Both the position numbers and the translations under genes were made by a program. 52,355 nt of DNA. It comes from an uncultured Saprospirales bacterium (GTDB lineage: Bacteria; Bacteroidota; Bacteroidia; Chitinophagales; CAJXBJ01). Each line of letters begins with the position of its first letter. The first letter of the stretch is position 1. Positions 3,001 to 45,202 of this stretch are shown piece after piece. The notes under the pieces are model-generated. The model was not told the origin of the DNA. It did no database searches and saw only the letters and a program-made list of their open reading frames with translations. Location: the NCBI GenBank assembly GCA_913050195.1, contig CAJXBJ010000003.1:1-52355 (forward strand). The letters are read 5' to 3'.

Positions 3001-4260
3001 CAAAAATAAATGAAGGTGAACAATATGGAGTAGTATCTATATCAAAATCTACTTGAAGAAGTTCAATAATAACTTTTGATTCCTCCGTGATATTATGGGA
3101 GCAATTATTACTATCTGTGATAGTTAGGCTAACATCATAATAACCAGGCATTGAATAAGTATGAAAAGGATTTTCTTGTTGGCTGCTATATCCGTCTCCA
3201 AAATTCCAGTCAAATTGAACTGCATTAATTGATTGGCTCGAAAAAGCATGCTGATATGGAGCTATACAGCTATAAATGGTTGTGGTGTCAAAATAGGCCT
3301 TTGGTACTTTGATTATTTCAATAGTGTCCTTAATATAACCAATACAACCTTGTGCATCTATGGCTCTAAGAAGCACTTCATAGCTACCTTCATCACTGTA
3401 AGTGTGATTAATGTTTTGAACACTTGAACTATCGCCATCACCAAATTTCCAAAGCCATTCAATAGCAAAAGTACTTGACTCATCATTAAATTTAATGGAG
3501 CTTAAGTCACAATAATCAGGCGTGTCAATTGAAAAGTTTGTTTGAACTTCTCTTACAGTGATATATTTTCCTATTTGCTTGCTACAGTTAAAGGTGTCAG
3601 TTACAGTAAGTTTAGCTAAAAAAGTATCAAATGCATTATAAACATGATAGGTGTTCTCTAAAAAGGAAGTATCACCATCCCCAAAATCCCAGATAAAATT
3701 TAGCGGACCATCTCCAGTTGAGTTATTAATGAAATTAACAGGATGTGGGGGGCTACATCCAAAAATAGAGTCAGCATTAAATGAAGCCGTGGGTTGATTT
3801 GTAGAAACAAAAACATCAATGGGTAATACAGTATCTCCTGTACAATTATTTTGATCTGAGATATACAAGGAAATCATCGTGCTTGTTGAAGTAGAATATG
3901 TTGCTAAAGGATTTTGAGATTGAGACGATTGTCCATTACCAAAATCCCATAGCCAATAATTTATTGGACTGCTTTGAGGAATGGATTGGTCTTGAATTGA
4001 GATATTTAAAGGATAACATCCTCTAGTGTCCGAAGTAATGCTAAAGTTTGCAGTTGGTAGTTGGAATGCTTCTATAAATTCAATTTTGGTAAGGCTATCT
4101 GAAAATTGTCCATTTACCCCATTTACAACGAGCTTTATATCATATTTGCCCGGATTAGGATAAATCTTAATTGGATTTTCTAAATTACTAAATGTGCCAT
4201 CTCCAAAATCCCATAAATAGGTGCCTTGGGCACCTCCGACAGCTGAGTTGTTTTGAAACT
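1..4260 (-). repeat. Tandem PKD-domain coding repeats with a period of about 240-260 nt
   Basis: The reverse complement of W(D/K/N/Y)FGDG recurs near 4200, 3940, 3675, 3430, 3195, 2950, 2705, 2462, 2225, 1985, 1750, 1510, 1270 and 1030, with degenerate copies further left. The 17-mer CCATCTCCAAAATCCCA occurs exactly near 4198, 2703, 1749 and 1509. Confidence 0.85.
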
Positions 4261-4378
4261 GTACAAGAAAAGGCTTGCAGCCCGATTGAAAATTTGATGT
4301 AAAATCTACTTGTCCACTAAGAAACCAAGAGGCTTGTACAGCAATACATACACATACGAAACGCAAGATGTGAGGCAT
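1..4378 (-). CDS. Giant PKD-repeat cell-surface protein. The start codon and at least 18 PKD domains are in the window; the C-terminus lies beyond the left edge.
   Basis: Absent from the supplied ORF track because there is no in-window stop. My manual minus-strand translation from the ATG (cat at 4376-4378) gives MPHILRFVCVCIAVQASWFLSGQVDFTSNFQSGCKPFLVQFQNNS..YLWDFGDGTFSNLENP.. and stays open to position 1. WDFGDG-type PKD motifs recur throughout. The short track ORFs at 778-969, 1222-1422, 1804-2019 and 3233-3427 are other-frame shadows. Confidence 0.9.
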   Translation of the reverse strand, partial: MPHILRFVCVCIAVQASWFLSGQVDFTSNFQSGCKPFLVQFQNNSAVGGAQGTYLWDFGDGTFSNLENPIKIYPNPGKYDIKLVVNGVNGQFSDSLTKIEFIEAFQLPTANFSITSDTRGCYPLNISIQDQSIPQSSPINYWLWDFGNGQSSQSQNPLATYSTSTSTMISLYISDQNNCTGDTVLPIDVFVSTNQPTASFNADSIFGCSPPHPVNFINNSTGDGPLNFIWDFGDGDTSFLENTYHVYNAFDTFLAKLTVTDTFNCSKQIGKYITVREVQTNFSIDTPDYCDLSSIKFNDESSTFAIEWLWKFGDGDSSSVQNINHTYSDEGSYEVLLRAIDAQGCIGYIKDTIEIIKVPKAYFDTTTIYSCIAPYQHAFSSQSINAVQFDWNFGDGYSSQQENPFHTYSMPGYYDVSLTITDSNNCSHNITEESKVIIELLQVDFDIDTTPYCSPSFIFVDKTIPNPKSWYWKFGDGDTSTFNAPTHTYIDTGSYLIELKVTGEFCSDSVYEYFHLTDTPKLYSLFTADSLHACSAPFTVNFTDYSKNAVTWLWDFGDGSSSTEQNPSHVFVESGSYTIRLSISDSLGCTDMYTLRDLIIVEQGFNPFSLHYSCNLPYQVRLEDNNYDGTSWQWSFGDGQFSNQQSPSHNYAIDGNYNISLNVYNNLNGCSYEFNDSIEIRDVNLDYQVSDNQICVYEKADFVNNSTGIDTCIWLFGDGSIDTIIEKRHLYEGPGFYTVQMIGWNNSCRDTLTKSNFVEVLGPMSNFDFDIDCANPLTVNFNNTSIIAQTYQWDFGDGSGSTTQHPSHDYTSQGVYTVFLYTNNFATGCQDTITKNVYMDPPIADFGATTHQCYGDTVTFIDFSPFAEDWHWDFGDGSVSNVKDPKHFYEVPDTYTVTLIITVNEVCHDTITKTNYVKVKAPKSEFEFQGDCDSIKKFRFTNLSKGADTYQWDFGDGQTSSIEDPMHHYASEGTYVVNLTTNNSLSGCQHIFFDTVFVRELKSDFYLKDSTFCFGNNIQFYDSSMYASDHLWYFGDGDTSHRKNPQHYYDSLGVFDVKLVVSNEFGCQDSIIKSNYLELLGPKSFFEDSFDCVDFYTVHLNDKSESADAWLWYFGDGINSLDTNTSHKYTSIKAYTIDLQTVNYSTGCAHIYSKRIQLNIPKADYIFSDSVVCEYEEVFFEDKSSFPSSWTWDLSDTTIIGIPNPEYAYRNSGVYNHSLHYTDINGCSDSLFHPSSIHVNPIPLVDFTLDTNIGCVPFEVQFNDNTVSDTALMSWLWTFTTSDNSTDQNPIFKFKNKGSYDITLSVSNAKGCGNQLTKEDIILITRPNTAFTTKESTLAYCLGDTVNFEQNNLTYNDNLNSTYFWDFRDSSNSSIAEPTKVYENSNIYSVFLIATDSNTCSDTTMTNINIQIVDASFYTNDTTYKSCPPLFINFGDSSISYIDYWEWDFGDNTGKAYQS

Positions 4379-4468
4379 AAGACGTAAAAATACTTCTAAA
4401 TGCTTAAAAAGCTTTTTTAATTGAAAGCTTATTTTAAAAAATATCAATATCTTCGAATCCTAATTTGC

Positions 4469-6471: not shown

Positions 6472-7482
6472 ATGGAAAAAGTAAAATTTGCAGTAGTAGG
6501 ATATGGTCATATTGGCAAAAGGCACGCAGCCATGATTGAAGGACATGAAGAGGCTGAATTAGTAGCTGTTGTTGATAATGACTCTAGTAAGTTAGAAGAT
6601 ATTAAGGATCGTGAAGATCTCAAAGCATATGAAAACTATGAAGCTTTGTTGATGTCAGATTTGGATATTGATGTAATAAATATTTGTACGCCTAATGGTT
6701 TACATAGTGAGCAGGCTAAAGATGCGTTAGAGCGTAAAGCGAATGTTGTAGTTGAGAAACCAATGGGTTTAAGTAAGCAGGGTTGTGAAGCTGTAATTTA
6801 TAAGGCGTTACAAGTGTCAAAGCATGTTTTTTGTGTAAAGCAGAATCGCTACAGTCCAACCTCTGTTTGGCTAAAGAGTTTATTGGATGAAAATCGATTG
6901 GGAGAAATATTTATGGTTCAATTAAATTGTTATTGGAATAGAGATGATAGGTATTATAGTAAAAGTGATTGGAAAGGCACCAAAGATATGGATGGAGGTG
7001 TTTTGTTTACACAGTTTAGCCATTTTGTAGATATTATGTATTGGCTATTTGGGGATATCAATAACATTCGTTCACGTATGGCAAATTTCACGCATAAAGA
7101 AAGTACCGAATTTGATGATTCAGGAGTGGTTAGTTTTGATTTTGTTAATGGTGGTATAGGTTCAATTAACTTTTCGACGTCTATTTACGGGGCTAATATG
7201 GAAAGTAGTATTGCAATTATTGGTGAAAAAGGCAGTGTTAAAGTTAGCGGTCAATATATGGACAAGGTTAGCCATTGTCTTATTGAAGATTATGAAATGC
7301 CAGAATTGCCCCCGGCCAACCCTCCAAATGATTATGGTGAATATAAAGGAAGTGCAGCAAACCATCATTATGTTATAGAAAACGTTATTAATGTAATTAA
7401 AGGGCGTTCAATGATATCAACAAATGCTCTAGAAGGCATGAAAGTAGTGGAGATCATTGAGCGTATTTACCAAGAGGCTTAA
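6472..7482 (+). CDS. Gfo/Idh/MocA-family NAD-dependent sugar oxidoreductase (WbpB-like)
   Basis: N-terminal Rossmann motif KFAVVGYGHIGKRH, the EKP motif (VVVEKPMG), and about 336 aa. It starts 2 nt after the stop of the OmpA gene. Confidence 0.8.
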   Translation: MEKVKFAVVGYGHIGKRHAAMIEGHEEAELVAVVDNDSSKLEDIKDREDLKAYENYEALLMSDLDIDVINICTPNGLHSEQAKDALERKANVVVEKPMGLSKQGCEAVIYKALQVSKHVFCVKQNRYSPTSVWLKSLLDENRLGEIFMVQLNCYWNRDDRYYSKSDWKGTKDMDGGVLFTQFSHFVDIMYWLFGDINNIRSRMANFTHKESTEFDDSGVVSFDFVNGGIGSINFSTSIYGANMESSIAIIGEKGSVKVSGQYMDKVSHCLIEDYEMPELPPANPPNDYGEYKGSAANHHYVIENVINVIKGRSMISTNALEGMKVVEIIERIYQEA

Positions 7483-7483
7483 A

Positions 7484-8752
7484 ATGAGTTTTAAGGAAAA
7501 GTCTCAGTCTGAATTTATAAAAAACGTATTTACTTTAGTTACTGGGACAGCTATTGCTCAATGTGTGCCAGTAATCCTGAGTCCATTTTTGCGTCGCTGG
7601 ATTACTGTTGAAGAGTATGCAGTATTTGAGGTTTTTTTTCGCTTAATGTCAATTATTTCAATTGCCGCAGCACTTAGATATCCATTGGCGATAGTGTTGC
7701 CAAAAGAGGATAAAGAAGCCAGTAATTTATTATGCCTCTCTATGCTAATAAGTACATTTATTAACTTATTGTTATTGGGTGTTATTTATTTCTTTAATAA
7801 TGCCATAACACTTACACTTAATATTCCTGATAATTATTCATCTGTTTTGTATTGGGTTCCAGTAGGAGCTTTTTTGATTTCTATGTGCAATATTTTTAAT
7901 TATTGGCTGATTAGAAAAAAGGCATTTAGTGCTTCATCGATTAATAAGGTAGTGCATAAAGTTTCAGAGTCTACTTTTTGGGTTTCATTTATTCATATTG
8001 GTTTTCAAAACACGCTTATTTGGGGTGATCTTTTAGCTCGTTTAGCATGGCTTCTTATGGCAATTAAACAATCTATTAATAATCAGCTTAGCGTCAGATA
8101 TTGTTCTTTGAAAGAAATGTGGTTTAGAGCAATTGAGTATAAAGCATATCCTTTGTATAATACGTTGCCAGCTCTTTTAAATGTAGCGAGTTTAATGTTA
8201 CCAGTTATATTTGTAAATAAACTCTATGATGAATCCGTAACCTCTAATCTTGGTTTATGTATGCAAGTATTGGGTTTTCCTTTAGCACTTATCTCTATGT
8301 CTGTGTCTCAGGTTCTTTTTCAGAAGATAACAGAGTCAAAGAATAAATCAATTTCGATAAAATCTTTCATTTCTAATTTGGTATTTAAATTGGTGTTAAT
8401 GGGGGCTTTGGGTATAGTAATTATGTATTTCTTTGGAGAATATTTATTTGTATTGGTTTATGGTGAATTCTACAGAGATGCTGGTGCATTTGCTAGTATA
8501 CTTGTTTTTTCAATAGCACTAAAATTTGTAATCTCTCCATTAAGCTTGATTTTTCCTGCCTTAGATAATATAAAAATGAGTAGTCTATGGCAATGTATAT
8601 ACTTTATTCTGATATTACTGCTCTTGTTTCTCCCTGATCTTTCTATTTTAGATTTTTTACTTGCTTATTTAGCTATAGAAATATTAGCCTATACTTTACA
8701 CGCATTTATGATTTATAGGGTAATAAGTAATTATGAGCACAAGCTCCCTTAG
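7484..8752 (+). CDS. Polysaccharide/oligosaccharide flippase (Wzx-like, MOP superfamily)
   Basis: Polytopic hydrophobic protein of about 420 aa in a polysaccharide context. The ATG at 7484 lies 1 nt after the upstream TAA. The track start at 7457 is a TTG inside the upstream gene. Confidence 0.7.
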   Translation: MSFKEKSQSEFIKNVFTLVTGTAIAQCVPVILSPFLRRWITVEEYAVFEVFFRLMSIISIAAALRYPLAIVLPKEDKEASNLLCLSMLISTFINLLLLGVIYFFNNAITLTLNIPDNYSSVLYWVPVGAFLISMCNIFNYWLIRKKAFSASSINKVVHKVSESTFWVSFIHIGFQNTLIWGDLLARLAWLLMAIKQSINNQLSVRYCSLKEMWFRAIEYKAYPLYNTLPALLNVASLMLPVIFVNKLYDESVTSNLGLCMQVLGFPLALISMSVSQVLFQKITESKNKSISIKSFISNLVFKLVLMGALGIVIMYFFGEYLFVLVYGEFYRDAGAFASILVFSIALKFVISPLSLIFPALDNIKMSSLWQCIYFILILLLLFLPDLSILDFLLAYLAIEILAYTLHAFMIYRVISNYEHKLP

Positions 8753-8777
8753 ATATTTCGTAAATTTGTATTGATTT

Positions 8778-10670
8778 ATGTTAAAGCTGTTTTTTAAAGG
8801 TGGGAGTTTGTCTAGAGGGAGTATTTTTATGGTTGATTTAATCATATGTACTTTTGTTATCTATCTAGCTTATTTACTCCGTTTTAATTTTCAAATCCCA
8901 CAATCAAGCCAGGAGCAATTATGGTTAGCAATCCCCTTGGTTTTGGGCTTTAGAACATTGACTTTTGTAGTCTTTAGGAGTTATTCAGGTGTTATACTGC
9001 ATACAAGTACGGAAGATGCACTTCGTATATTTTTGACGGTATCAATAGGTTCTATTTGTTTTTTGTTGGCTAATCTAATTAGTTTTGGCTTTAGAGATGT
9101 CTTCATTATACCGCATTCGATTATAATTATTGACTATGTCTTTTGTATTTTCTTTCTAACCGGTTTTAGAATCTTTATTAAGGTCTTATATCTTGAACTT
9201 ATGAATGTCCAAAAGGAAAGGTCAAATGTTTTAATTTATGGGGCTGGTCAGGAAGGAATTGTAACAAAAAGAACTTTGGAAAGAGATCGTGAAGTAAAGT
9301 ATAAAGTGGTTGGCTTTATAGATGAGAATTCATACATGGCTCGAATGAAACTAGAGGGTGTGAACGTTTATCATACTTCAGATGATTTATTTGAAATAAT
9401 GGAGGATAAAAAAATTAATTTATTAATTTTTTCTAAAGATAAAATCAATAGTCAAACTAAAAAATCATTAATTAATGATTGTTTGAGGTCCAAGGTAAAA
9501 GTGCTTAATGTGCCGCCAATGCAAAAGTGGATTAATGGTGAATTAAGTTTTAACCAAATTCGTCAGATTAAAATTGAAGATCTTTTAGGAAGGGAGCCTA
9601 TTCATTTAGATAAGACCCTTATTAATAAGGATATTAAAGGCAAATGTGTCTTAGTTACAGGCGCAGCGGGTTCAATTGGTTCAGAATTGGTTCGCCAAAT
9701 TCTTTTCTTTAATCCAGATAGGCTTATTATGTTGGATCAGGCAGAATCTGCAATTTATGATTTAGATATTGAGCTTAGAGGCAACTATGTTCCATTTCAG
9801 GATTACGAGGTTGTTATTGGTGATGTGCGAAATATGGATCGTATGCTTAATGTGTTTAGCACATTTAAGCCAGATATTGTATTTCATGCTTCTGCCTATA
9901 AGCATGTGCCACTGATGGAAAGTAATCCATCTGAGGCTATTTTGACAAATGTTCTTGGAACAAAAAATGTTGCAGATTTATCTGTGAAGTTTGAAGTTGA
10001 TAAATTTGTCTTGATATCTACAGATAAAGCTGTCAACCCAACTAATGTTATGGGTGCCTCAAAGCGTATAGCAGAGATATATGTTCAATCCTTAAATGCT
10101 TTTCAAGATTCATTAAGGCACCAAACTGCCTTTGTAACTACTCGATTTGGAAATGTATTAGGATCAAATGGTTCAGTGATTCCTTTATTTAGAAAACAAA
10201 TAATGAATGGTGGTCCAGTTACTGTGACACATCCAGATGTTACACGTTTCTTTATGACAATTCCTGAGGCTTGTCAATTAGTTCTTGAAGCAGGTGCAAT
10301 GGGTAATGGTGGTGAGATATTTATATTTGATATGGGTACATCTGTAAAGATTATTGACTTGGCAAAGAAAATGATTGAGCTTTCAGGTCTTGAACTTGAT
10401 AAAGATATTAAGATTAAATTCACGGGATTAAGAGATGGCGAAAAGTTGTATGAAGAGCTATTAAGTCAAGCTGAAAATACCCTGCCTACGCATCATGAAA
10501 AAATCATGATAGCTAAAGTTCGTTCTTATGAATTTGAATTAATTAATGAACAGATTAAAGATTTGATTCACAGTTTTGAGAATCAAGAAAATATGCAAAT
10601 AGTAAAGCAAATGAAAGTTCTGGTTCCAGAATTTCAAAGCAAAAATTCCATTTTTAAGAATCTTGATTAA
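8778..10670 (+). CDS. Membrane-anchored nucleotide-sugar 4,6-dehydratase/epimerase (CapD / PglF / WbpM family polysaccharide biosynthesis protein)
   Basis: N-terminal TM helices, then a Rossmann motif VLVTGAAGSIGSEL, the ASAYKHVP block (YxxxK) and ISTDKAVNPTNVMGASKR, all typical of the CapD family. Confidence 0.85.
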   Translation: MLKLFFKGGSLSRGSIFMVDLIICTFVIYLAYLLRFNFQIPQSSQEQLWLAIPLVLGFRTLTFVVFRSYSGVILHTSTEDALRIFLTVSIGSICFLLANLISFGFRDVFIIPHSIIIIDYVFCIFFLTGFRIFIKVLYLELMNVQKERSNVLIYGAGQEGIVTKRTLERDREVKYKVVGFIDENSYMARMKLEGVNVYHTSDDLFEIMEDKKINLLIFSKDKINSQTKKSLINDCLRSKVKVLNVPPMQKWINGELSFNQIRQIKIEDLLGREPIHLDKTLINKDIKGKCVLVTGAAGSIGSELVRQILFFNPDRLIMLDQAESAIYDLDIELRGNYVPFQDYEVVIGDVRNMDRMLNVFSTFKPDIVFHASAYKHVPLMESNPSEAILTNVLGTKNVADLSVKFEVDKFVLISTDKAVNPTNVMGASKRIAEIYVQSLNAFQDSLRHQTAFVTTRFGNVLGSNGSVIPLFRKQIMNGGPVTVTHPDVTRFFMTIPEACQLVLEAGAMGNGGEIFIFDMGTSVKIIDLAKKMIELSGLELDKDIKIKFTGLRDGEKLYEELLSQAENTLPTHHEKIMIAKVRSYEFELINEQIKDLIHSFENQENMQIVKQMKVLVPEFQSKNSIFKNLD

Positions 10671-14149: not shown

Positions 14150-15457
14150 TTATTTCTTCCTAAACCATAAAGTTAATGGAACCCCTTCAAAATCAAAATT
14201 TTCTCTAATCTTATTTTCTAAGAATCGTATATAGGATTCTTTAATGTACTGGGGGAAGTTAGTGAAAAAAGCGAAGGCTGGGAACTTGCCTTTAATTTGC
14301 GTAACATATTTAATCTTGATATATTTTCCTTTGTGTGATGGAGGTGGTTGCTTTTCCATAACTTTCTGAAGTAAATCATTGAGCTTACTTGTGCCTACTG
14401 TTCGGAACATATTTTCATAAACATCCAGACCTTTTTCAACGGCTTTAAATATTCGTTGCTTCGTTAATGCGGATATATATAAGATAGGGACATCCGTAAA
14501 AGGCGCAATACGTTCTTTTATTTCTTTAGAATAAGCCTCAACACTTTTATGATCTTTTTCTACAAGATCCCATTTGTTAACTAATATAATAATGCCTTTT
14601 TTTCTTTTTTGGGCTAAGTTGAAAATATTAACATCTTGAGCTTCAAATCCTTGGATAGCATCAATTAATAAGAAGCATACATTAGCCTCTTCAATGGCTT
14701 TAACTGCACGCATTACTGAGTAAAATTCTACATCTTCATATACCTTAGATTTTCTACGTATGCCTGCTGTATCAACTAGAATAAACTCTTTGCCATAGAA
14801 ATTGTATTTAGAATTGATAGTATCCCTAGTAGTGCCTGCAATATCAGTTACAATATTCCTTTCCTCTCCTAAAAGAGCATTTAGAAATGATGACTTACCG
14901 ACATTTGGTCTACCAATTATAGTGAACTTAGGTAAATCGTCGTCATCTTCCAAATCATCAATTTCCTCTAAGTGACCAACTAGCGCATCTAATAGTTCCC
15001 CAGTTCCGCTTCCACTAATAGCAGATATTTTATACAATTCACCTAGCCCCAATGAATAAAATTCATTAGCATCTAAATCTCTATAATAATTATCTACTTT
15101 GTTAACTATGGTCAGAACTGGTTTGTTTTGTTTTCTAAGTAGGTCAGCTACTTCGGCATCAAGGTCTGTAATACCTGTAGATACATCCATCATAAAAAGT
15201 AATACATCTGCTTCACCAATTGCAATATGTACCTGGTTTTTAATCTCTTTTTCAAAAATATCAGAAGAGTTCTCAACAAGACCTCCCGTATCAATTACAG
15301 AAAATTCTTTACCGTTCCAATCAGAGGTTCCATAAATCCGATCACGAGTAATACCACTCTGATCATCCACTATAGCCTTGCGGGTACCTAATAAACGATT
15401 AAAAAAAGTAGATTTACCAACATTTGGTCTTCCTATTATTGCAACAACGCCTGCCAT
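14150..15457 (-). CDS. der: Ribosome-biogenesis GTPase Der (EngA)
   Basis: Two tandem G domains (GRPNVGKST twice, DTGG/DTAG, NKVD/NKWD) plus a KH-like C-terminal domain; 435 aa. Confidence 0.95.
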   Translation of the reverse strand: MAGVVAIIGRPNVGKSTFFNRLLGTRKAIVDDQSGITRDRIYGTSDWNGKEFSVIDTGGLVENSSDIFEKEIKNQVHIAIGEADVLLFMMDVSTGITDLDAEVADLLRKQNKPVLTIVNKVDNYYRDLDANEFYSLGLGELYKISAISGSGTGELLDALVGHLEEIDDLEDDDDLPKFTIIGRPNVGKSSFLNALLGEERNIVTDIAGTTRDTINSKYNFYGKEFILVDTAGIRRKSKVYEDVEFYSVMRAVKAIEEANVCFLLIDAIQGFEAQDVNIFNLAQKRKKGIIILVNKWDLVEKDHKSVEAYSKEIKERIAPFTDVPILYISALTKQRIFKAVEKGLDVYENMFRTVGTSKLNDLLQKVMEKQPPPSHKGKYIKIKYVTQIKGKFPAFAFFTNFPQYIKESYIRFLENKIRENFDFEGVPLTLWFRKK

Positions 15458-16416
15458 TATTTTCTATATCCGTATTGATTTAAAAAGAGGTCTCGATCTT
15501 TCCAATTCTCTCTAGTCTTAACCCTTAACTGCAAAAATACTTTTTTCCCTAGAAAGTTTTCTAGCTCTTTTCTTGATAATATACCTATTTCCTTTATGCC
15601 TTTGCCTTTATTCCCTACAATTATTGGTTGATGAGATTTACGACTTACGATAATTTCAGCATCAATTCGATAAATTCTCTCTTCTTCTTCAGTTGCTATA
15701 ATAGCAACTTCGCAAGAATAAGGTATTTCTTGTTGAAAATTTTGAAATATTTTTTCACGTATTATTTCTGATATGAAAAAAGATTCCATTCGATCAGTTG
15801 TAATATCAGTAGGAAAGAAAGCTGGGCCTTCTGGAATTGCTTTAGTGATTTGTTTTAAAAGACTATCAACATTATCTTTTGTCTCTGCTGAGATGGGTAA
15901 TATAGGTACATTACTTAGGCCTAAACTTTCTAGAGTAATGTCCCATGCCTCAAAAAGAGCATCAAGTTGACTAGGCTTTTTAACTAAATCAATCTTATTA
16001 ATCAATAAAAAGGCACTTAACTGATCATCTTTGATGCGTCTAATTGCTTTTTGCAATGCTCGATAATCGTTAAGGATATCAGGAGATTCGCTAATATCTG
16101 TCATGATTAAAAGAATGTCAGCATCCTCCAAAGCTTCCTTAACCATTCCCATCATACGCTTATGAAGCGCATAGGCTGGTTTAATTATACCTGGAGTATC
16201 AGAAAATACAATTTGTAAGTTTTCTTTGTTAAGAATGCCCAATATTCGATGCCTAGTAGTTTGAGCTTTATTTGTAACTATGGCCATTTTTCTATTTAAA
16301 AAAGCATTTAGTAATGTGCTTTTCCCAACATTTGGACGACCAATGATATTTACATATCCAGATTTAAATATTTGACTAGTCATATTGCTGTCTACAAAGC
16401 TAGTAATTGTTTTCAT
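15457..16416 (-). CDS. era: GTPase Era
   Basis: GRPNVGKSTLLN, DTPG and NKID motifs with a C-terminal KH domain. An alternative ATG lies at 16383. The stop overlaps the der start by 1 nt (TAATG), indicating an era-der operon. Confidence 0.92.
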   Translation of the reverse strand: MKTITSFVDSNMTSQIFKSGYVNIIGRPNVGKSTLLNAFLNRKMAIVTNKAQTTRHRILGILNKENLQIVFSDTPGIIKPAYALHKRMMGMVKEALEDADILLIMTDISESPDILNDYRALQKAIRRIKDDQLSAFLLINKIDLVKKPSQLDALFEAWDITLESLGLSNVPILPISAETKDNVDSLLKQITKAIPEGPAFFPTDITTDRMESFFISEIIREKIFQNFQQEIPYSCEVAIIATEEEERIYRIDAEIIVSRKSHQPIIVGNKGKGIKEIGILSRKELENFLGKKVFLQLRVKTRENWKDRDLFLNQYGYRK

Positions 16417-16497: not shown

Positions 16498-16570
16498 TGC
16501 GGGGTGGAGCAGTTGGTAGCTCGTCGGGCTCATAACCCGAAGGCCGTAGGTTCAAGTCCTGCCCCCGCTA
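16498..16570 (+). tRNA. Initiator tRNA-Met (anticodon CAT)
   Basis: Cloverleaf folded by hand: acceptor 16498-16504 / 16563-69, anticodon loop CTCATAA with CAT at 16531-16533, T-loop TTCAAGT. It has three consecutive G:C pairs closing the anticodon stem (GGG/CCC) and an unpaired 1:72 (T:T), both initiator hallmarks. It is very close to the E. coli tRNA-fMet sequence as I recall it. No CCA is encoded. Confidence 0.9.
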
Positions 16571-16582
16571 CTAAGAAAGTTT

Positions 16583-16626
16583 CAAAGTCCCTTGTAAATC
16601 GAAGAATTGCAAGGGACTTTGTTTTA
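16583..16626 (+). terminator. Rho-independent terminator after the tRNA
   Basis: Perfect 12-bp stem: CAAAGTCCCTTG (16583-16594) pairs with CAAGGGACTTTG (16610-16621), with a 15-nt loop followed by TTTT. Confidence 0.7.
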
Positions 16627-16633
16627 TAAAGCT

Positions 16634-17041
16634 ATGCTTGAAAAAAGTAAAATTGTTTTTTTTGATGGTGTTTGCAATTACTGTAATGCCACGGTCAATT
16701 TCGTGCTGAAGAATAATAAAGACAAGGATATTCTTTTTTGTCCATTACAGTCTTCAAAAGCTAAAATGTTTCTGACCAATATGAATGAAAATCCCAAAGC
16801 TTTAAATACCATATACTATTATTCTAGCGGAAGGGTTTATAAAAAATCTAAGGCTGTCTTAATGATATTTAAGTCCCTTAGTTTGAGCTTTAATATATTA
16901 GCATTTTTAGGAGGTTTTTTTCCGACAATAATATCAGATAAGATTTATGATATTATAGCGCAAAACCGATACAAAATTATGGGAAAAAGAACAGAATGTC
17001 GTATTCCCAATGAATCAGAAAAGTCAAGATTTATACAATAA
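16634..17041 (+). CDS. DCC1-like thiol-disulfide oxidoreductase (DUF393 family)
   Basis: FFDGVCNYCN (CxxC) near the N-terminus. The track start (TTG at 16607) lies inside the tRNA terminator hairpin, so I prefer the in-frame ATG at 16634 (MLEKSKIVFFDG..). Confidence 0.75.
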   Translation: MLEKSKIVFFDGVCNYCNATVNFVLKNNKDKDILFCPLQSSKAKMFLTNMNENPKALNTIYYYSSGRVYKKSKAVLMIFKSLSLSFNILAFLGGFFPTIISDKIYDIIAQNRYKIMGKRTECRIPNESEKSRFIQ

Positions 17042-18200: not shown

Positions 18201-18902
18201 TTAATCATAAATTTCAAAATGTATATAATTCCGATTATAGTTATTCTCTTGTAGCCAAGAGCGAGCATCCATAATCATTTGCTTAAATCCGCATAAATAG
18301 AAATGAGCATTTTGCCTATTTCTGTATAAATCACGATAAATACTATGAACATAACCCTGAAAACCATTAAAGTTTTCTCTTGAGAGTGCTACATGATATT
18401 CTAAACTCTCTTGCTTTTTTGCCATAGCTTTAAATTCATCATGATAAAGTAAATTCTCTTTTTTCTTAGAGCCAAAGATTAGGTGAATTTTTTTGTGTGG
18501 AATTTTCTTTTCATAAATATAATTAAGCATTGATCTAAAAGGGGCAACTCCAGTGCCTGTGCTTATCATGACTAAATCGCGGTCAATTATTTCAGGAAGA
18601 ATAAATTTTCCCACCGGACCTAAGATTGGAAACTCCGTTCCAATTTTGGCTTTTTCAAAAAGAAAGCTTGTGCCAAGGCCACCCTCTACTTTATTGATGA
18701 TAAACTTGAGCTTATTTTCAAAAGGGGAGGAAGCAATAGAGTAATGCCTTAATGCTTTTTTGGGGTTTTCGTGAATTGGTAATTGAAAGCTTACAAATTG
18801 TCCTGGATTAAATTCAAATTGTTTTACACCCAACAATTCAATAATAAATTGATTAGTATCAAACGTTTCTTTTTTAATATCTACAATTCTACCCGTATAC
18901 AT
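18201..18902 (-). CDS. Ferredoxin-NADP(+) reductase-like FAD/NAD(P)-binding oxidoreductase
   Basis: RHYSIAS (the RxYS FAD motif), GGLGTSFL and ISTGTGVAPFRS (NAD(P)-binding) blocks; 233 aa. Confidence 0.8.
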   Translation of the reverse strand: MYTGRIVDIKKETFDTNQFIIELLGVKQFEFNPGQFVSFQLPIHENPKKALRHYSIASSPFENKLKFIINKVEGGLGTSFLFEKAKIGTEFPILGPVGKFILPEIIDRDLVMISTGTGVAPFRSMLNYIYEKKIPHKKIHLIFGSKKKENLLYHDEFKAMAKKQESLEYHVALSRENFNGFQGYVHSIYRDLYRNRQNAHFYLCGFKQMIMDARSWLQENNYNRNYIHFEIYD

Positions 18903-18917
18903 ATCTAGAATAAAGCT

Positions 18918-20006
18918 TTAGTAAGATACAAATTTTTCAAAGGTATTGTCGTATAGATCAATCTGATTAGTCCAATCATATTCTAGAATAGAATTTTTTG
19001 TTGAATTCGCTATAGTTCGTGGATTTAAAATAAAGTCTCTACATAATTCAAATAGCTCATCATCAGTCTCATAGAGTACGGCATGATTAGAAAATAATTC
19101 AGGATAGCTTAGGCGTTTTGGTAGAAAAGCATAAACGTCACAATGTATAGCTTCAGCAATACTAATACCAAAGAAATCTTGATTGGAACAAACGGGTAGT
19201 ATGTGACAGCTATGTATCAGCTCTGCGTAAGTTTTAAAGTTTTTAGCAAAACCTAAATGAACTATCTTGTTATTTATTTTTTCATAAAGTACTGTAAAAA
19301 CTTCTTTCCCCGCTTTAAATTCTTCACCAACTATTATAACTTCGAAGTCTAAGTTTTCAGCTTCTAAGTTTAAACAGAGCTTTACAAAAGCTTCTGGGTT
19401 TTTATCTGATTCCCAACGATGATTCCATAATAGTCTTGTTTTTTTTGCTTTTCCTTTTTTGAAATTATCAAGCTTCTTTAAGTCTAAACCCAAAGGCAGT
19501 ACTGCTGATTTTTCAGTAATTGATTTAAGACTATACATATTCCTGTGATCTGGAAAGGCCTTTAAAAAAATAGGTAAGCTTTTTAAAAAACTTTCCATAT
19601 TGAACTTTGAATTGAATAAGCAGTAGTTTGAACATAGTGCTGAAGTATAGTTTATAAAGGCATAATGATTTTCTCTTTTAAATAAGGCATCTGTATCTTT
19701 TGGACTTTTAGGATAGACCAATTGATTTTCGTGAAAGTACAATAGGATTGGTATGTTTCTCCAATTTTCTGGAAGTAAAGCTTTCAATAGAGCAACATTA
19801 CACATGTCCGAAGCAATAATAAGGTCAGGGCTATTTTTATTATTAATTTGCTGTATTAGTGTAATTACGCCTGCCTCCATTCGCCATTTCCAATACTTTC
19901 CTTTTAAGGTATATAAATCAATATTATGCCTTGAATTATTTTTTAAACCATCAAGCCAAGTTTTGTGTGATCCGGTATAGTAGGTTTCAAAAGCAGCTAT
20001 TTCCAT
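18918..20006 (-). CDS. DUF3524 glycosyltransferase, orthologue of eukaryotic GTDC1 / QTMAN (tRNA-queuosine alpha-mannosyltransferase)
   Basis: The blocks YYTGSHKTW, LLYFHENQLVYP, LFNSKFNMESFL, FPDHR, LWNHRWESDKNPEAF and FFGISIAEAIHC..YPELF match blocks I recall in human GTDC1. This needs confirmation by alignment. Confidence 0.75.
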   Translation of the reverse strand: MEIAAFETYYTGSHKTWLDGLKNNSRHNIDLYTLKGKYWKWRMEAGVITLIQQINNKNSPDLIIASDMCNVALLKALLPENWRNIPILLYFHENQLVYPKSPKDTDALFKRENHYAFINYTSALCSNYCLFNSKFNMESFLKSLPIFLKAFPDHRNMYSLKSITEKSAVLPLGLDLKKLDNFKKGKAKKTRLLWNHRWESDKNPEAFVKLCLNLEAENLDFEVIIVGEEFKAGKEVFTVLYEKINNKIVHLGFAKNFKTYAELIHSCHILPVCSNQDFFGISIAEAIHCDVYAFLPKRLSYPELFSNHAVLYETDDELFELCRDFILNPRTIANSTKNSILEYDWTNQIDLYDNTFEKFVSY

Positions 20007-20072
20007 TCCTTTAAGATAATTTTTTTAAAGAAAAATAGTCCGTATATTTTAGGTGCATTAAAATATATCTCT

Positions 20073-20795
20073 ATGAGAAATTGGATTTTAGTCATTGTAG
20101 TATTTATAAGTTCATCGCTTTTTGTTAATGCTCAATCTTTTGGAGTATCTATGAGCTATTTCTATCCCAAAAATGGCTATTTCGCAAGCCCAATAGCACC
20201 ATTATCATTTCACGACTTAGGTGTTGGTTTTGGGGATTATCTTTCATTGGCATTCTCTATGTCACTGTATAATGTTGGCGGCATGTCCATGGGAGGAGAA
20301 CTGCCATTAGGTGGAATTCCACTTTCATTAAGTGATGATAATACTCCTCTAATTGGGCCATTTTTATCTCTTGCTATAGGTGTATATCCAATCATTAAAT
20401 TACCTCTTTCTAAAGACAAATTAGAGTTAGAGTTAAAAGGCGGGTGGCTTGGATTTAAAAATTTCAACCCTAAGCTAATGAAGGGCAACATGAATGAATT
20501 GATTTCAGATCATCAAAGTGTCACTGTTACGAGTTCAGAAATAGAATTTGATAATAAATTTGGTTCTGGATGGAGCTTTGGTGGCGATATTATATTTTTT
20601 GTTACAGAAACCTTAGGTATTAAAATAGGTGGTAAATATTTACTCGCAGAGTTGGACCTTAATTTAAGAGGGAGTTATACCTCAATAGATCCACTAACCA
20701 ATAATTTAATGCAGGTTAATATAGATGCTCCAGATGCTTACTTAGATTATCAAGGGCTTTCAGTTAATTTTGGTGTGATAATTAAAAACAAATAA
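20073..20795 (+). CDS. Hypothetical secreted protein or outer-membrane beta-barrel-like protein
   Basis: Signal peptide MRNWILVIVVFISSSLFVNAQ, Gly-rich sequence with alternating hydrophobic pattern, no family recognised. Confidence 0.55.
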   Translation: MRNWILVIVVFISSSLFVNAQSFGVSMSYFYPKNGYFASPIAPLSFHDLGVGFGDYLSLAFSMSLYNVGGMSMGGELPLGGIPLSLSDDNTPLIGPFLSLAIGVYPIIKLPLSKDKLELELKGGWLGFKNFNPKLMKGNMNELISDHQSVTVTSSEIEFDNKFGSGWSFGGDIIFFVTETLGIKIGGKYLLAELDLNLRGSYTSIDPLTNNLMQVNIDAPDAYLDYQGLSVNFGVIIKNK

Positions 20796-24848: not shown

Positions 24849-27800
24849 ATGAATAGAATTTCGACAAATGTTAACAAAAAAATCCATTGGAGTAAGCGAG
24901 TAAATAATTTAATCCTTTTAGCAATGGTAACATTAGGAATGATGCTTTCTAATGAAGATATTAAAGCTCAAACAGCAAATCATTGTTTTGGAACACAGAT
25001 ATTTACAGCATCACAAGGTCAAATTAGTGATGGCAGTGGACCAAATATTTCTTATGGATTTAACTTGGATTGTAAGTTTTTAATAAAGCCAAGTAATGCC
25101 ATATCTGTAACATTATATCCTAAGGTATTTGATACTGAACTTAATTATGATAGGCTGAGAGTGTATGACGGAGAAACAATAAATGCACCTTTAATTGGAG
25201 AATATTCAGGTAATACAATTCCAAGTGCAATTAATGCAACACAAGGCAGTGTTTTGCTTCATTTTATTTCTGATAATGCAATAAGTTATGATGGATTTGC
25301 AATTGATTATACCTCAACACCAGGACCTTATTGTATAGGCACAAAAAGTATAACAGCAGCAACTGGAACCATTAATGATGGTAGTGACAATGGCGCTAAT
25401 TATGATGCTTACTCTAATTGTAAGTGGTTAATAGAGCCAGCTAATGCTAGCAGTATTGATTTGATATTTACACAGATGGATGTTGAGTCAGGTAATGATT
25501 TTGTAAAGGTATATGACGGTGATAATGTGAGTGCGCCAATGATTGCAATGCTTAGTGGTAATTCAATTATTGGAAATACAATTTCATCAACTGGAGGTAA
25601 AATGCTAGTGCAGTTTACATCTAACGCGAGTGTTAATATGGATGGTTGGGAAGCTGATTATACAGCAAAATTTACAAACAATAATGGAAATAATAACGCT
25701 GTGCCTTACTGTTCAGGTTTAACAACTTTAACCAATTCCAATGGTAGTTTTGATGATGGAAGTGGGTCAACAGATTATGCGTTAAACTCAAATTGTAAAT
25801 GGTTGATTCAGCCAGTAGGAGCACAGCATATTAGTTTGAATTTTACTGAATTTGATCTAGAACACAGTTATGATTTTGTAAACATATATAAAGGGAGTAG
25901 TACCTCGGACCCATTGATTGCTTCATATACTGGCAATACTATTCCTAGTCAAATTAATGAAAATACATCAGCTTTATTAGTCCACTTTATATCAGATAAT
26001 TTAAATAATGCATCTGGCTGGAAAGCAAACTATACAGCTCAAAACACACCTAATAATGGAGGTAATACTGGTAATAGTAATAGCGGTGGATCTAGTCCTA
26101 ACTTTTGTTCTGGACAGACAGTGTTTAGTTCGGCTAATGCAGTTTTTGATGATGGCAGTGGTAATAATACAAATTATCAAAACAATGCAAATTGTGAATG
26201 GTTGATTCAACCTGCAGGAGCATCTCAAGTTACTTTAGAGTTTAACTATATTCAATTAAAAGGTAATGACTTTGTATATATTCATGATGGCAATAGTTTT
26301 AATTCTCCTGTAATTGCGTCATTTAATGGTTATAATACATCATCTTTGCCTTTACCTGTTGTTTCAGGAGGAGAAATGCTTGTTCGCTTTGTGACCAATG
26401 GTTCACATACCGATTATGGTTTTGAAGCTGAATATACATCAAATAGTAGCTCTAATAATAGCGGAAATGCTAATGGTGCTTATTGTAATGCAATAACAAC
26501 CCTAACTGCAGCAAATGGGGTGTTTGAGGATGGTTCAGGTACGGATGATTATATGCCTAACACAGATTGCAAATGGTTAATTCAACCAAATAATGCTTCA
26601 AGTATAACACTAGACTTTAGTTGGTTAGAGCTCGAGAATGATTATGATTATATACGAGTTTATGATGGTAATAGTACCAATGATCCTTTATTAGCAGTTT
26701 ATACGGGAGTTATGACATCTACATTGCCATTGATATCAACGGGAGGCTCAATGTTAATTCACTTTGAATCTGATAATATTGAAAATTGGGATGGATTTGC
26801 AGCTAATTGGACATCTACACAAAATAATTCTGGAAATAATGGAGGTGGTGCAAATACGCCTTGTTCAGGCTTAGTTAACCTGTCATCTTCAAATGGTAGT
26901 TTTTCAGATGGTAGTGGTGCCAATAATTATGAGCCTAATGCTGACTGTAAATGGTTGATACAAGTATCCGGTGCAACCTCTATAGATCTGGACTTTAGTA
27001 GCTTTGATTTAGAGCAATCTTATGATTATGTCAAGGTGTATGATGGTACAGACGCTAATGCCAACTTACTTGCTTCTTTAACGGGCAACACTATTCCTGC
27101 AACCATAAGCTCAAGTGGCTCTTCATTATTTGTGCATTTTACTTCTGATAATCTAATAAATAAAGGTGGTTGGGAAGCCAATTACAATGCGAATGTAAAT
27201 AATGGAGGTGGGAATGGTCAATATTGTAGTGGTCAAATGACATTAACTTCGCCACAAGGAAGCATAGTTGATGGAAGTGCCTCAAGTAACTACGCGCCAA
27301 ATTCAGACTGCAAATGGTTAATTAGCCCTGCAAATGTTTATTCTATTACATTAAGTGCGAATCAAATTGATCTTGAGAATTCGTATGATTATATTAAGGT
27401 GTATGATGGGAATACAACAAATGCTCCCTTATTAGCATCATGGTCAGGAAACACTATTCCTTCAAATGTAACGTCTACTGGTGGGGAAATGCTTGTTCAC
27501 TTTACTTCAGATCATTTGATTAACAAATCTGGATTTGATTTGAGCTATTCAACAACATCTACACCGAACAATGGCATTGTTAATCATGGCTATTGCAATG
27601 ATATTACAAGCTATAATCTTCCTGTTGGAACTTTTCATGATGGTAGTGGAGTTGGTGCAGATTATTTGGATAGTACCCATTGTTATTGGTTAATACAGCC
27701 AAATCAGGCAGATACAATAGAGTTGACTTTTATCTCATATGATACTGAGGCTAACTATGACTTTATTAGAGTTTATGATGGTACTACTGTTAGCGCCCCT

Positions 27801-28493
27801 TTAATTGATGTTATATCAGGATTCGGAATATATAAGAAAATTATAGGCACAAGTGGCGCTTTGTTGGTTGAATTTACATCTGATGAATCATATCAAGCTC
27901 CTGGGTTTTTGGCGACATGGACAACTAAATCAGTCCAAAATGGTGGAGCTACAGCAGCACCTATTGCAGATTTTATTGCTTCAGCACAAAATATAAATGT
28001 TGGTGATAAGATAGACTTTTACGATTTATCTCAAAATACTCCATCAACCCACAGCTGGATTTTTGTAAATGGTTCAAATCCAATTTCATCAGTCAAAAAC
28101 CCAACAAACATTCAATACAACACTCCAGGTTGCTATGATGTTAGTTTAACAGTAACTAATAATTTTGGTGCAGATCAGACTACCAAAACCTGTTATATTA
28201 ATGTGAATGCGCTAGTTGGACTAGGGGAAGGAGAGGAATATCTTGAAAAAGACATTAAGGTCTTCCCAAATCCTACGAAAGGTAGATTTACAATTTATTT
28301 CAATCCAGAGAAAGACAAGGATAGTAAATTGCAAATAACAAACCTTTTAGGAGAGATTATTTATGAGCAAGTGATTTCTGATATGGAAGTCTTTGAAAAA
28401 GAATTTGATTTAAGTAAACATAGTCAAGGTATATATTTTGTAAATGTTAGTTCAGGAGATCAAATAATTTCAAAAAAACTTACTATAAATTAA
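24849..28493 (+). CDS. T9SS cargo protein with 8 tandem CUB domains, 1 PKD domain and a type-A CTD
   Basis: Eight units fit C-x-G-x(6-9)-G-x-(F/I)-x-DGSG-x(3-5)-Y-x(3-4)-C-(K/E/Y)-W-L-I-x-P...(I/V)-x-L-x-F..(D/E)-L-E-x-x-YD(Y/F)(V/I)-x-(V/I)-YDG....P-L(I/L)......G-x-x-(I/L)-P...S-x-G...L(V/I)-x-F-x-SD......G(F/W)-x-A-x-Y. A PKD domain follows at aa 1037-1119, and the CTD reads KVFPNPTKGRFTIYF..YFVNVSSG..KKLTIN. Confidence 0.85.
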   Translation: MNRISTNVNKKIHWSKRVNNLILLAMVTLGMMLSNEDIKAQTANHCFGTQIFTASQGQISDGSGPNISYGFNLDCKFLIKPSNAISVTLYPKVFDTELNYDRLRVYDGETINAPLIGEYSGNTIPSAINATQGSVLLHFISDNAISYDGFAIDYTSTPGPYCIGTKSITAATGTINDGSDNGANYDAYSNCKWLIEPANASSIDLIFTQMDVESGNDFVKVYDGDNVSAPMIAMLSGNSIIGNTISSTGGKMLVQFTSNASVNMDGWEADYTAKFTNNNGNNNAVPYCSGLTTLTNSNGSFDDGSGSTDYALNSNCKWLIQPVGAQHISLNFTEFDLEHSYDFVNIYKGSSTSDPLIASYTGNTIPSQINENTSALLVHFISDNLNNASGWKANYTAQNTPNNGGNTGNSNSGGSSPNFCSGQTVFSSANAVFDDGSGNNTNYQNNANCEWLIQPAGASQVTLEFNYIQLKGNDFVYIHDGNSFNSPVIASFNGYNTSSLPLPVVSGGEMLVRFVTNGSHTDYGFEAEYTSNSSSNNSGNANGAYCNAITTLTAANGVFEDGSGTDDYMPNTDCKWLIQPNNASSITLDFSWLELENDYDYIRVYDGNSTNDPLLAVYTGVMTSTLPLISTGGSMLIHFESDNIENWDGFAANWTSTQNNSGNNGGGANTPCSGLVNLSSSNGSFSDGSGANNYEPNADCKWLIQVSGATSIDLDFSSFDLEQSYDYVKVYDGTDANANLLASLTGNTIPATISSSGSSLFVHFTSDNLINKGGWEANYNANVNNGGGNGQYCSGQMTLTSPQGSIVDGSASSNYAPNSDCKWLISPANVYSITLSANQIDLENSYDYIKVYDGNTTNAPLLASWSGNTIPSNVTSTGGEMLVHFTSDHLINKSGFDLSYSTTSTPNNGIVNHGYCNDITSYNLPVGTFHDGSGVGADYLDSTHCYWLIQPNQADTIELTFISYDTEANYDFIRVYDGTTVSAPLIDVISGFGIYKKIIGTSGALLVEFTSDESYQAPGFLATWTTKSVQNGGATAAPIADFIASAQNINVGDKIDFYDLSQNTPSTHSWIFVNGSNPISSVKNPTNIQYNTPGCYDVSLTVTNNFGADQTTKTCYINVNALVGLGEGEEYLEKDIKVFPNPTKGRFTIYFNPEKDKDSKLQITNLLGEIIYEQVISDMEVFEKEFDLSKHSQGIYFVNVSSGDQIISKKLTIN
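24984..27926 (+). repeat. 8 x CUB-domain coding repeats (348-396 nt each) separated by Asn/Gly-rich linkers
   Basis: The first Cys of each unit falls at aa 46, 162, 288, 420, 546, 672, 793 and 916 of the ORF. Linkers include NNNGNNNAVP, NTPNNGGNTGNSNSGGSSPN and QNNSGNNGGGANTP. The repeats are diverged at the DNA level. Confidence 0.8.
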
Positions 28494-36611: not shown

Positions 36612-37253
36612 TTGGAGAAAATAATATGTCATATTGCTGATGGGCACTACTTAATAAAGGAGGGGCTGAAGGCCATGTTAAGTCAATATAGTACTGTAGT
36701 ATTGACTAAAGAAGCATCAAATATTGAATCTCTTGAGTGTAATTTAAATCAAGAGGAGCCTGATGTTTTAATGTTAGATTATAAGACAATCGGTTTTAGT
36801 AACTTATCTAAGCTTAAGTCCCTCATTGATATTTACCCTGGATTAGGGGTTTTAATTATTTCAGACTTTAGGGATAGTAGTGAGGTGCAGCTTATTTTAA
36901 ATACAGGCGTGAACGGAATATTACTTAAAGAGTGTGATGAAGAGGAAATTATGGAGGCTATAGAAGCTATAGCAAATAAAGAGCGCTTTTTTTGTGGTAC
37001 AATTTTAGAAATGCTTCAGGAAAATGAAGAAGATGGTTTCAGCTGTTCGCCTGTAAATCTTTCAGAGAGAGAAATAGAGATTATAGGTTTAATAACAGAT
37101 GGTCTGAGTAGCAAGGCTATTGCTGACACGCTTTTCCTAAGTATTCATACTGTAAATACACATAGAAAAAACATCCTCAAAAAGCTTAATGTTAAGAGCA
37201 GTTCAGAGCTCGTTAACTATGCATTTAAAATAGGTATAAGGGGTTTAGTTTAA
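36612..37253 (+). CDS. Orphan NarL/FixJ (LuxR)-type response regulator
   Basis: Receiver domain (..PDVLMLDY.., LIISD, ILLKE) plus a C-terminal LuxR helix-turn-helix (LSEREIEIIGLITDGLSSKAIADTLFLSIHTVNTHRKNILKKL). TTG start; there is no upstream in-frame ATG. No histidine kinase is present in the window. Confidence 0.8.
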   Translation: MEKIICHIADGHYLIKEGLKAMLSQYSTVVLTKEASNIESLECNLNQEEPDVLMLDYKTIGFSNLSKLKSLIDIYPGLGVLIISDFRDSSEVQLILNTGVNGILLKECDEEEIMEAIEAIANKERFFCGTILEMLQENEEDGFSCSPVNLSEREIEIIGLITDGLSSKAIADTLFLSIHTVNTHRKNILKKLNVKSSSELVNYAFKIGIRGLV

Positions 37254-39871: not shown

Positions 39872-39960
39872 GATTTTATATTCCTTTTATCTAGTAGATA
39901 ATTTAGTTGCACAAAAGTACGAATTAATTCTTTTTTGGTATCTTCGTGCCTTCTTAAATT

Positions 39961-44383: not shown

Positions 44384-45099
44384 TGGCCTTTTTGAGCGTA
44401 AATAATATTTCTAAGTCTTTCAAAGAAGAGAAAGTATTACAAAATTTATCATTTGATGTTAAGAAGAGTGAGCGTGTTGCTATCATTGGTGGAAGTGGTG
44501 ATGGGAAGTCTACTTTACTTAGACTAATTGCTGGTTTTGATTATTTAGATGGGGGGCAAATAGAATTAAATGGTCAGATAATTAGTTCAGAGTTATCGCA
44601 TATGGCACCTGAGTCAAGAAATATAGGAATGGTATTTCAGAATTATGCTTTGTTTCCTCACTTAAATGTAATGGAAAATATATGTTTTGGACTTGGCGTT
44701 GACAGAAATGAAACTGATGTCAAAAAATATATCTTAATGCTTGGACTTGAAGGTATGGAAGCAAAGTATCCTCATGAGCTTTCAGGTGGACAGCAGCAGC
44801 GATTAGCGATAGGTAGAAGTTTGATTTTACGCCCGCCATTAATGTTGTTAGATGAAGTGATGAGTAATGTGGATGTATTAAATAAAAATAGCTTAATTAA
44901 AGATATATCGAATATATCTAGGGAGTTAGACTTGACTTTGTTATTTGTTACTCATGATATTAGAGATGCTGTTGCTCTGTGTGATCGTTTTTTATTTATT
45001 GAAGATGGTAAATTAGTTCAGGATGGAACCTTAAATGAAATAAGAGCTAATCCGGCCTCAGACTTTATTATGGCTCATCTTAACTTGATATTTAGATGA
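44383..45099 (+). CDS. ABC transporter ATP-binding protein, short form without a C-terminal TOBE/regulatory domain
   Basis: Walker A GGSGDGKST, Q-loop MVFQNYALFPHL, signature LSGGQQQR, Walker B LLDEVMSNVD and H-loop FVTHD. It overlaps the permease stop by 1 nt (TAATG). Confidence 0.85.
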   Translation: MAFLSVNNISKSFKEEKVLQNLSFDVKKSERVAIIGGSGDGKSTLLRLIAGFDYLDGGQIELNGQIISSELSHMAPESRNIGMVFQNYALFPHLNVMENICFGLGVDRNETDVKKYILMLGLEGMEAKYPHELSGGQQQRLAIGRSLILRPPLMLLDEVMSNVDVLNKNSLIKDISNISRELDLTLLFVTHDIRDAVALCDRFLFIEDGKLVQDGTLNEIRANPASDFIMAHLNLIFR

Positions 45100-45172: not shown

Positions 45173-45202
45173 AATAAAGTATTGTTAAATAAAAAAAATA
45201 AG

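Follow-up and report, generated by a model that had tools for sequence, protein, structure and literature searches.

The gene at positions 18918 to 20006 (minus strand) of the window, the whole 52,355-nt stretch of uncultured Saprospirales DNA that was analysed, encodes a 362-aa protein that is firmly supported by sequence comparison as a full-length homologue of vertebrate QTMAN (GTDC1) with the same two-domain architecture. Our best explanation of its role, to which we give an even chance of being right, is that the protein would be a soluble, cytoplasmic glycosyltransferase of the retaining type, attaching a hexose to queuosine-34 (Q34) of a tRNA with a GUN anticodon; the acceptor and the sugar we infer by analogy with the vertebrate enzyme. 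Vertebrate QTMAN (GTDC1) is the tRNA-queuosine alpha-mannosyltransferase, EC 2.4.1.110 (Zhao et al. 2023, cited in PMC11755703). The first-pass annotation of the window had called the gene product a bacterial orthologue of this enzyme. Homology over the full length and the common architecture bear this out, but the relationship is not new: because Pfam QTMAN_N is the former DUF3524 and the NCBI product name of bacterial members is already 'DUF3524 domain-containing protein', bacterial QTMAN homology is existing database knowledge, and the window gene joins a recognised family. Full-text searches turned up no publication dealing with a bacterial member of the family, and none of the papers searched mentions DUF3524, PF12038 or a QTMAN homologue from bacteria.

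The QTMAN-family gene and its product

The 18918..20006 reading frame is intact, as originally annotated, with an ATG start and 362 codons followed by a stop. The features of the gene and its immediate surroundings are as follows.

18918..20006, minus strand: QTMAN/DUF3524-family glycosyltransferase gene, 362 aa (ORF, Pfam, AlphaFold, Foldseek)
19485..20000, minus strand: N-terminal QTMAN_N domain, residues 3-174 (Pfam, alignments)
19014..19463, minus strand: C-terminal GT1/GT4 nucleotide-sugar (donor) domain, residues 182-331 (Pfam, motif alignment)
18201..18902, minus strand: gene for a 233-aa flavin reductase of the FNR/Fre type (FAD and NAD(P)H), starting 15 nt beyond the end of the QTMAN-family gene (Pfam, NCBIfam)
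20007..20072, no strand: AT-rich intergenic region of 66 nt, presumed promoter region, between the QTMAN-family gene and the divergent 240-aa gene
20073..20795, plus strand: divergent 240-aa protein with an N-terminal signal-like segment, family unassigned

Both Pfam domains scored above their cut-offs. PF12038 QTMAN_N matched with 184.9 bits (E=1.3e-54; gathering cut-off 25) over profile positions 2-168 of 168, and PF00534 Glycos_transf_1 matched residues 182-331 with 35.8 bits (E=7.6e-9; cut-off 26.4). The NCBIfam search gave no equivalog, its sole match being EpsE at 25 bits against a cut-off of 400. The motifs of the QTMAN_N domain are GSH (13-14), WKWR (39-42), HENQ (92-95; nt 19722-19733), FNS (131-133) and PDHR (152-155). 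In the C-terminal domain, HRWESDK (196-202; nt 19401-19421) contains the phosphate-binding R/K pair, and the GT4 (E/D)x7E motif is DFFGISIAE (277-285; nt 19152-19178); the donor-site residues R197, K202 and D277-x7-E285 are intact. No transmembrane segment, hydrophobic segment or signal peptide was found in the window protein (maximum KD19 1.33), and its pI is 6.8. Because it lacks a hydrophobic segment and has this pI, and given the family evidence, we regard it as an intact, soluble and probably active member of the QTMAN family.

A human GTDC1 sequence served as bait only; the database returned P0121, a primate QTMAN/GTDC1 of 458 aa (listed identity to the bait 100%), and macaque entries with 96% identity to the query bear the name 'tRNA-queuosine alpha-mannosyltransferase'. 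A reciprocal search, together with a check for DUF3524 and the C-terminal glycosyltransferase domain, had been proposed at the outset. The window protein matched P0121 by BLASTP with E=3e-32, and P0121 in the reverse search found all 269 of the 269 sampled bacterial members (120-235 bits). Against alligator QTMAN the two halves aligned separately, with 36% identity over 170 aa in the N-domain (residues 1-170) and 28% over 162 aa in the C-domain (186-346). The match of the window protein to QTMAN is far beyond chance.

Five sequence blocks had been named in the first-pass annotation as shared with GTDC1, and all five were present in the alignment with QTMAN. The pairs, window protein first, are YFHENQLVYP/YFHENQLIYP, FNSKFNMESFL/FNSVFNMESFL, PDHR/PDHR, HRWESDKNPEAF/HRWEHDKDPESF and DFFGISIAEAIHC...YPELF/EFFGVAMLEAVYC...YPEIF. 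The description 'long, nearly identical' fits these blocks but not the protein as a whole, for which overall identity is ~30%. An alignment of 63 sequences (52 bacterial and 11 vertebrate) contained 32 invariant columns. Across 365 bacterial and 71 vertebrate proteins, 35 positions were at least 95% conserved and identical between the two groups, and the window protein has 35 of the 35. About half of them fall in the N-domain (S13, H14, W39, W41, R42, Y90, H92, E93, N94, Q95, Y98, P99, F131, N132, S133, F140 and P152); those in the C-domain include W194, H196, R197, W198, E199, D201 and K202. At twelve further positions bacteria and vertebrates have each fixed a different residue.

Vertebrate QTMAN thus aligns end to end with the window protein in the same QTMAN_N plus GT1/GT4 architecture and has HENQ, FNS, PDHR, HRWExDK and (E/D)FFGx4E in common with it, although overall identity is as low as given above. 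The two differ in a 101-aa inter-domain insertion of the vertebrate enzyme that is absent from the bacterial proteins; the human enzyme exceeds these in length by ~100 residues. They also differ in the first acidic residue of the Ex7E motif, which in the window protein, unlike vertebrate QTMAN, is Asp. The first-pass annotation had offered three options, a conserved tRNA or Q-like substrate, an ancestral function and inter-domain gene transfer, and the present data are compatible with each of them. A recent transfer appears unlikely because the sampled bacterial proteins reach at most about 39-43% identity to vertebrates in either domain.

Predicted fold and spread of the bacterial family

An AlphaFold2 model computed with the family alignment (pLDDT 92.1, pTM 0.90) has two Rossmann-like halves of alternating beta and alpha elements. 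Foldseek against the PDB gave 391 matches at E<=1e-3. The top matches were all retaining GT-B enzymes, mostly GT4, at TM 0.65-0.75 and 11-15% identity; they included GlgM, MshA, PimA, BshA, PglA, sucrose-phosphate synthase and trehalose-P synthase, with nothing closer. On this model we are confident in assigning the window protein a GT-B, GT4-like retaining fold. The retaining GT4 character of the nearest structures fits the alpha (retaining) mannosyl transfer of QTMAN.

By sequence, phmmer of the window protein against PDB sequences found no solved structure. The family profile matched PDB sequences in the C-domain only (best E=1e-9), and it detected no relative of the QTMAN_N half there. In these alignments HRWEyDKNP of the profile corresponds to GRLDHNKNP of WlaC, the GT4 R-x4-K phosphate motif, and qDFFG..EA to the GT4 E..FG..EA (Ex7E) motif. 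MshA, BshA, PimA, GlgM and PglA resemble the window protein in GT-B fold and in the R/K and Ex7E donor-site motifs of the C-domain, but their N-domains belong to other families (Glyco_transf_4). By convention the N-terminal half of a GT-B enzyme binds the acceptor. Since no structure of the QTMAN family is detectable by sequence in the PDB, the compact and confidently predicted bacterial proteins would make convenient subjects for a first structure.

The family is large. With the window protein as query, 3877 clusters at 90% identity were found at E<1e-5; a Sandaracinaceae member found at least 6285 such clusters at E<1e-10. Among 1.84 billion representatives at 50% identity there were 718 with E<1e-30 and 1622 with E<1e-10, and of 600 candidate stretches from a metagenome scan 591 were confirmed. 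The named sources, all of them MAGs, are Saprospiraceae, Chitinophagales, Flavobacteriales, Anaerolineae/Chloroflexota, Sandaracinaceae, Desulfobacterales and KSB1. Among its relatives the window protein is divergent: identity is 97% with one marine cluster, falls to 51% with the one that follows and is 40-48% with all the remaining ones. Marine metagenome contigs, those of Tara Oceans among them, encode the identical protein. The gene sequence was matched in DNA runs only, and none of its words was present in the single RNA run of the same sample.

Identity between family proteins of different phyla is still 52-58%, and mean identity within bacteria is 57% for the N-domain versus 47% for the donor domain. 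Conservation of this kind would be the pattern expected for an invariant, universal acceptor. Two related arguments were dropped. Better conservation of the N-domain than of the C-domain between bacteria and vertebrates is seen for the window protein (36% versus 28%) but not for the whole family (32% versus 35%). Basic charge as an argument for RNA binding is unsupported, the family proteins being not basic (median pI 6.2).

Genomic context in the window and at related loci

The QTMAN-family gene and the FNR-like reductase gene of the window are probably co-transcribed. The contig that encodes P0002, the homologue with 51% identity, has the same pair, and a reductase of this type was absent from the neighbourhood at all 95 other loci. 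We therefore treat the pair as a feature confined to the lineage of the window and reject the reductase as a general functional partner; that it could supply electrons for oQ reduction is pure speculation. A sigma-70 scan of the intergenic region gave no excess over shuffled sequences, so no promoter is claimed at 20007..20072. The divergent 240-aa protein had no Pfam or PADLOC match. Its gene is kept beside the QTMAN-family gene on exact-match marine contigs, and the 51%-identical homologue has, at the corresponding place on its own contig, a 223-aa gene with no Pfam match, which may be a counterpart by its position.

Several other window genes were recorded. The ribosome-assembly GTPase genes der/engA (14150-15457, minus) and era (15457-16416, minus), tRNA-Met(CAT) (16498-16571, plus) and then a DCC1-like thiol-disulfide oxidoreductase gene (16607-17041, plus) lie ~2-5 kb from the QTMAN-family gene. 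An Rfam search of the window found only the tRNA-Met at 16498 and no preQ1 riboswitch. Neighbouring window genes carry T9SS sorting domains, by which the window is assigned to Bacteroidota. One gene (24849-28493, plus) encodes a 1214-aa protein with a T9SS sorting tail, about eight CUB domains (Pfam CUB, 505 bits in 8 stretches) and a PKD domain. CUB is generally regarded as a mainly metazoan extracellular domain, which makes this another 'eukaryote-like' gene in the window. A complete cyanophycin set occupies 37250-41765, comprising the cyanophycin synthetase CphA (37250-39871, minus), a Peptidase_S51 cyanophycinase-like protein (39961-40854, plus) and an isoaspartyl peptidase/asparaginase_2 (40836-41765, minus). 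At 45122-51169 (plus) there are co-directional genes for DUF4856, imelysin (Peptidase_M75), an HTTM/vitamin-K-dependent gamma-carboxylase-like protein (47383-48732), whose VKGC lumenal domain matched with E=2e-51, and a TonB-dependent receptor, with an ABC transporter (41832-45099) upstream and ferritin downstream. The cluster resembles an iron-related locus that includes a VKGC-like enzyme. At the left end of the window an open frame of at least 1486 aa (1-4459, minus) runs past the boundary.

Related loci, 95 in all, were collected, 12 of them through a genome-contig scan with a single-sequence query. ORFs were called, clustered all against all over 96 loci, and immediate neighbours were searched against Pfam. 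The QTMAN-family gene stands alone, with highly variable surroundings: at ~90 loci its 152 immediate neighbours fell into ~175 Pfam families. A conserved operon partner was sought and none emerged, as the clustering gave lineage-restricted synteny only. No tgt, queA, queG or other que gene was present in the 52-kb window or as the adjoining gene at ~90 loci, and 52 kb is uninformative on the Q pathway of the host. Around the gene at the 90 loci there was no polysaccharide, LPS or capsule cluster, and flippase, polymerase and sugar-nucleotide genes were not recurrent; among 77 downstream neighbours there were 4 DegT and 4 GT4 genes, each from a single lineage. The census of ~90 loci showed no recurrent dpd, tgt-like or defence neighbours, tblastn against 50,697 phage records and 72,556 plasmid records found no copy, and PADLOC gave no defence-system match. 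A mobile or defence origin was rejected on these phage, plasmid and PADLOC results.

Recurrent arrangements were seen in three lineages.

L017, L022, L033, L037, L040, L054, L057, L062, L076: tRNA-Leu(CAG) upstream of the QTMAN-family gene, marine Bacteroidota clade
L076, 7297-7381: tRNA-Leu(CAG), followed by the QTMAN-family gene at 7467-8561
L005, 5745-7988 and L008, 5601-7979: relA/spoT (p)ppGpp synthetase/hydrolase
L002, 2757-3887; L003, 9092-10213; L004, 4134-5264; L010, 8902-10023: second GT4 gene of Saprospiraceae

The commonest neighbour was SmpB (14 immediate, 18 loci nearby), with tyrS beside smpB in 16 of the 18. These smpB/tyrS loci represent one T9SS-bearing Bacteroidota clade, whose family proteins are 53-89% identical to each other. 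At nine of them tRNA-Leu(CAG) lies upstream on the same strand, ~20-100 nt from the gene in six of the nine. In L022 the unit of tRNA-Leu(CAG) and QTMAN-family gene is inverted relative to smpB-tyrS, which suggests that the two travel together. In Anaerolineae the QTMAN-family gene starts 10-13 nt after full-length relA/spoT, both genes having the same orientation, and gyrA lies downstream and convergent. The Saprospiraceae loci have a conventional GT4 gene (Glyco_transf_4 plus Glycos_transf_1) that directly adjoins the QTMAN-family gene at its end, or overlaps it there, in three of four cases and is 32 nt away in L010; DUF7009 and molybdopterin oxidoreductase genes come next. A two-step glycosylation is conceivable in this lineage. 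The only recurrent links were to translation genes, each in a single lineage, and these could be inherited synteny. A solitary gene with shifting neighbours and occasional translation linkage is like many tRNA-modification genes, which we take as weak evidence.

Candidate acceptors of the bacterial enzyme

By analogy with QTMAN, the C-domain would bind an NDP-hexose, possibly GDP-mannose, and the N-domain would present the queuosine cyclopentenediol at position 34 of a GUN-anticodon tRNA. The tRNA would be tRNA-Asp on the same analogy, with tRNA-Tyr also possible. The product would be a glycosylated queuosine in which the anomeric configuration is retained, as for alpha-manQ. If the vertebrate precedent holds, the sugar may adjust the speed of decoding or protect the anticodon loop against cleavage. 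Colicin E5-type toxins cut at Q34-U35, and such Q34-U35-directed tRNase toxins may be what the sugar shields against. The bacterial host would make Q de novo; vertebrates salvage queuine.

For the tRNA-queuosine reading speak the family-specific N-domain motifs that the bacterial proteins have in common with the enzyme that mannosylates Q34 of tRNA-Asp. A mosquito study also reports QTMAN orthologues throughout Diptera (PMC11705514). Sugar-modified queuosines are known from vertebrates, and the bacterial derivative is gluQ (PMC10690763, PMC12710937). The same literature agrees with the statement of the first-pass annotation that no glycosylated queuosine had been reported in bacteria, the sugar-bearing forms coming from animals. 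GluQRS (YadB), the glutamyl-queuosine tRNA-Asp synthetase, is the sole bacterial enzyme known to decorate the Q34 cyclopentenediol, on tRNA-Asp (PMC10690763), and shows that bacteria hypermodify Q. This enzyme, which is paralogous to the catalytic domain of aminoacyl-tRNA synthetases, forms an ester with glutamate, has no homology to the window protein and uses a different chemistry. The tRNA-queuosine galactosyltransferase QTGAL (B3GNTL1) makes the product type proposed here, a hexosylated Q34 on a GUN tRNA (tRNA-Tyr), but belongs to an unrelated glycosyltransferase family in which no sequence relationship to the window protein was seen. QTGAL has a GT-A fold and is inverting. Its relevance lies solely in the recurrence of tyrS near the QTMAN-family gene in a single bacterial clade.

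Against the tRNA-queuosine reading stand the ~30% identity to the characterised enzyme, a level at which the acceptor specificity of glycosyltransferases often changes, the missing que linkage, the non-basic proteins, nearest folds that use small soluble or lipid acceptors, and a literature in which glycosyl-Q comes from animals alone (PMC10690763, PMC12710937). Some of these points also favour the main rival, which we consider rather unlikely. It holds that the same family and fold acts on a non-RNA acceptor such as a cyclitol, a free queuine or queuosine-type nucleoside, or a thiol or osmolyte precursor, and that eukaryotes later recruited the scaffold to tRNA-bound Q. The nearest structures do take small acceptors, among them MshA (inositol-P), BshA (malate), GlgM and the sucrose-P and trehalose-P synthases; the acidic to neutral proteins offer no obvious RNA-binding charge, linkage to tRNA-modification or que genes is absent, and bacteria and vertebrates differ at the 12 fixed positions. 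However, the acceptor-side motifs GSH, WxWR, HENQ, FNS and PDHR are common to the tRNA enzyme, no lineage has a small-molecule biosynthetic cluster beside the gene, and the neighbours that recur are translation genes.

It is very improbable that the protein serves the cell envelope or exopolysaccharide synthesis as an ordinary glycosyltransferase, a role implied by the name 'glycosyltransferase involved in cell wall biosynthesis', the automatic JGI label that many homologues carry. That label mirrors the generic GT1 domain only, and the N-domain belongs to a QTMAN-specific family, not to Glyco_transf_4. In favour of this role are the weak EpsE match (25 bits against the cut-off of 400), polysaccharide genes in the window (6472-10670) at a distance of ~8 kb or more, and the second GT4 gene that follows directly in Saprospiraceae. 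Across ~90 loci, however, the gene is solitary and outside wzx/wzy/sugar-nucleotide clusters; the protein lacks a TM segment or signal peptide, and cross-phylum identity of 52-58% is atypical of fast-evolving envelope glycosyltransferases. There is scarcely any chance that the target is a 7-deazaguanine base in another nucleic acid (DNA of Dpd-like systems, or other RNA) and not tRNA Q34, a proposal with chemical analogy only and a weak precomputed match of some homologues to PF20706 'GT4 in conflict systems' in its favour, and with the empty phage, plasmid (tblastn) and PADLOC searches and a neighbour census free of dpd, tgt-like and defence genes against it.

We return to glycosylation of Q34 as the preferred reading. 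Extended to the family, it would mean that Bacteroidota, Chloroflexota, Myxococcota, Desulfobacterota and KSB1 install glycosylated queuosine on tRNA, that eukaryotic QTMAN descends from a bacterial enzyme, and that the sugar could shield against Q34-directed anticodon nucleases; we advance this wider proposal tentatively, at a little short of even chances. Eukaryotes depend on bacteria for queuine. If the bacterial enzymes do not act on tRNA, the family would define the ancestral acceptor of a large, highly conserved orphan glycosyltransferase family. If they do, hexosyl-Q would be a wobble-base modification new to bacteria, present in environmental lineages by the thousand, and the origin of Q glycosylation would move from vertebrates to bacteria.
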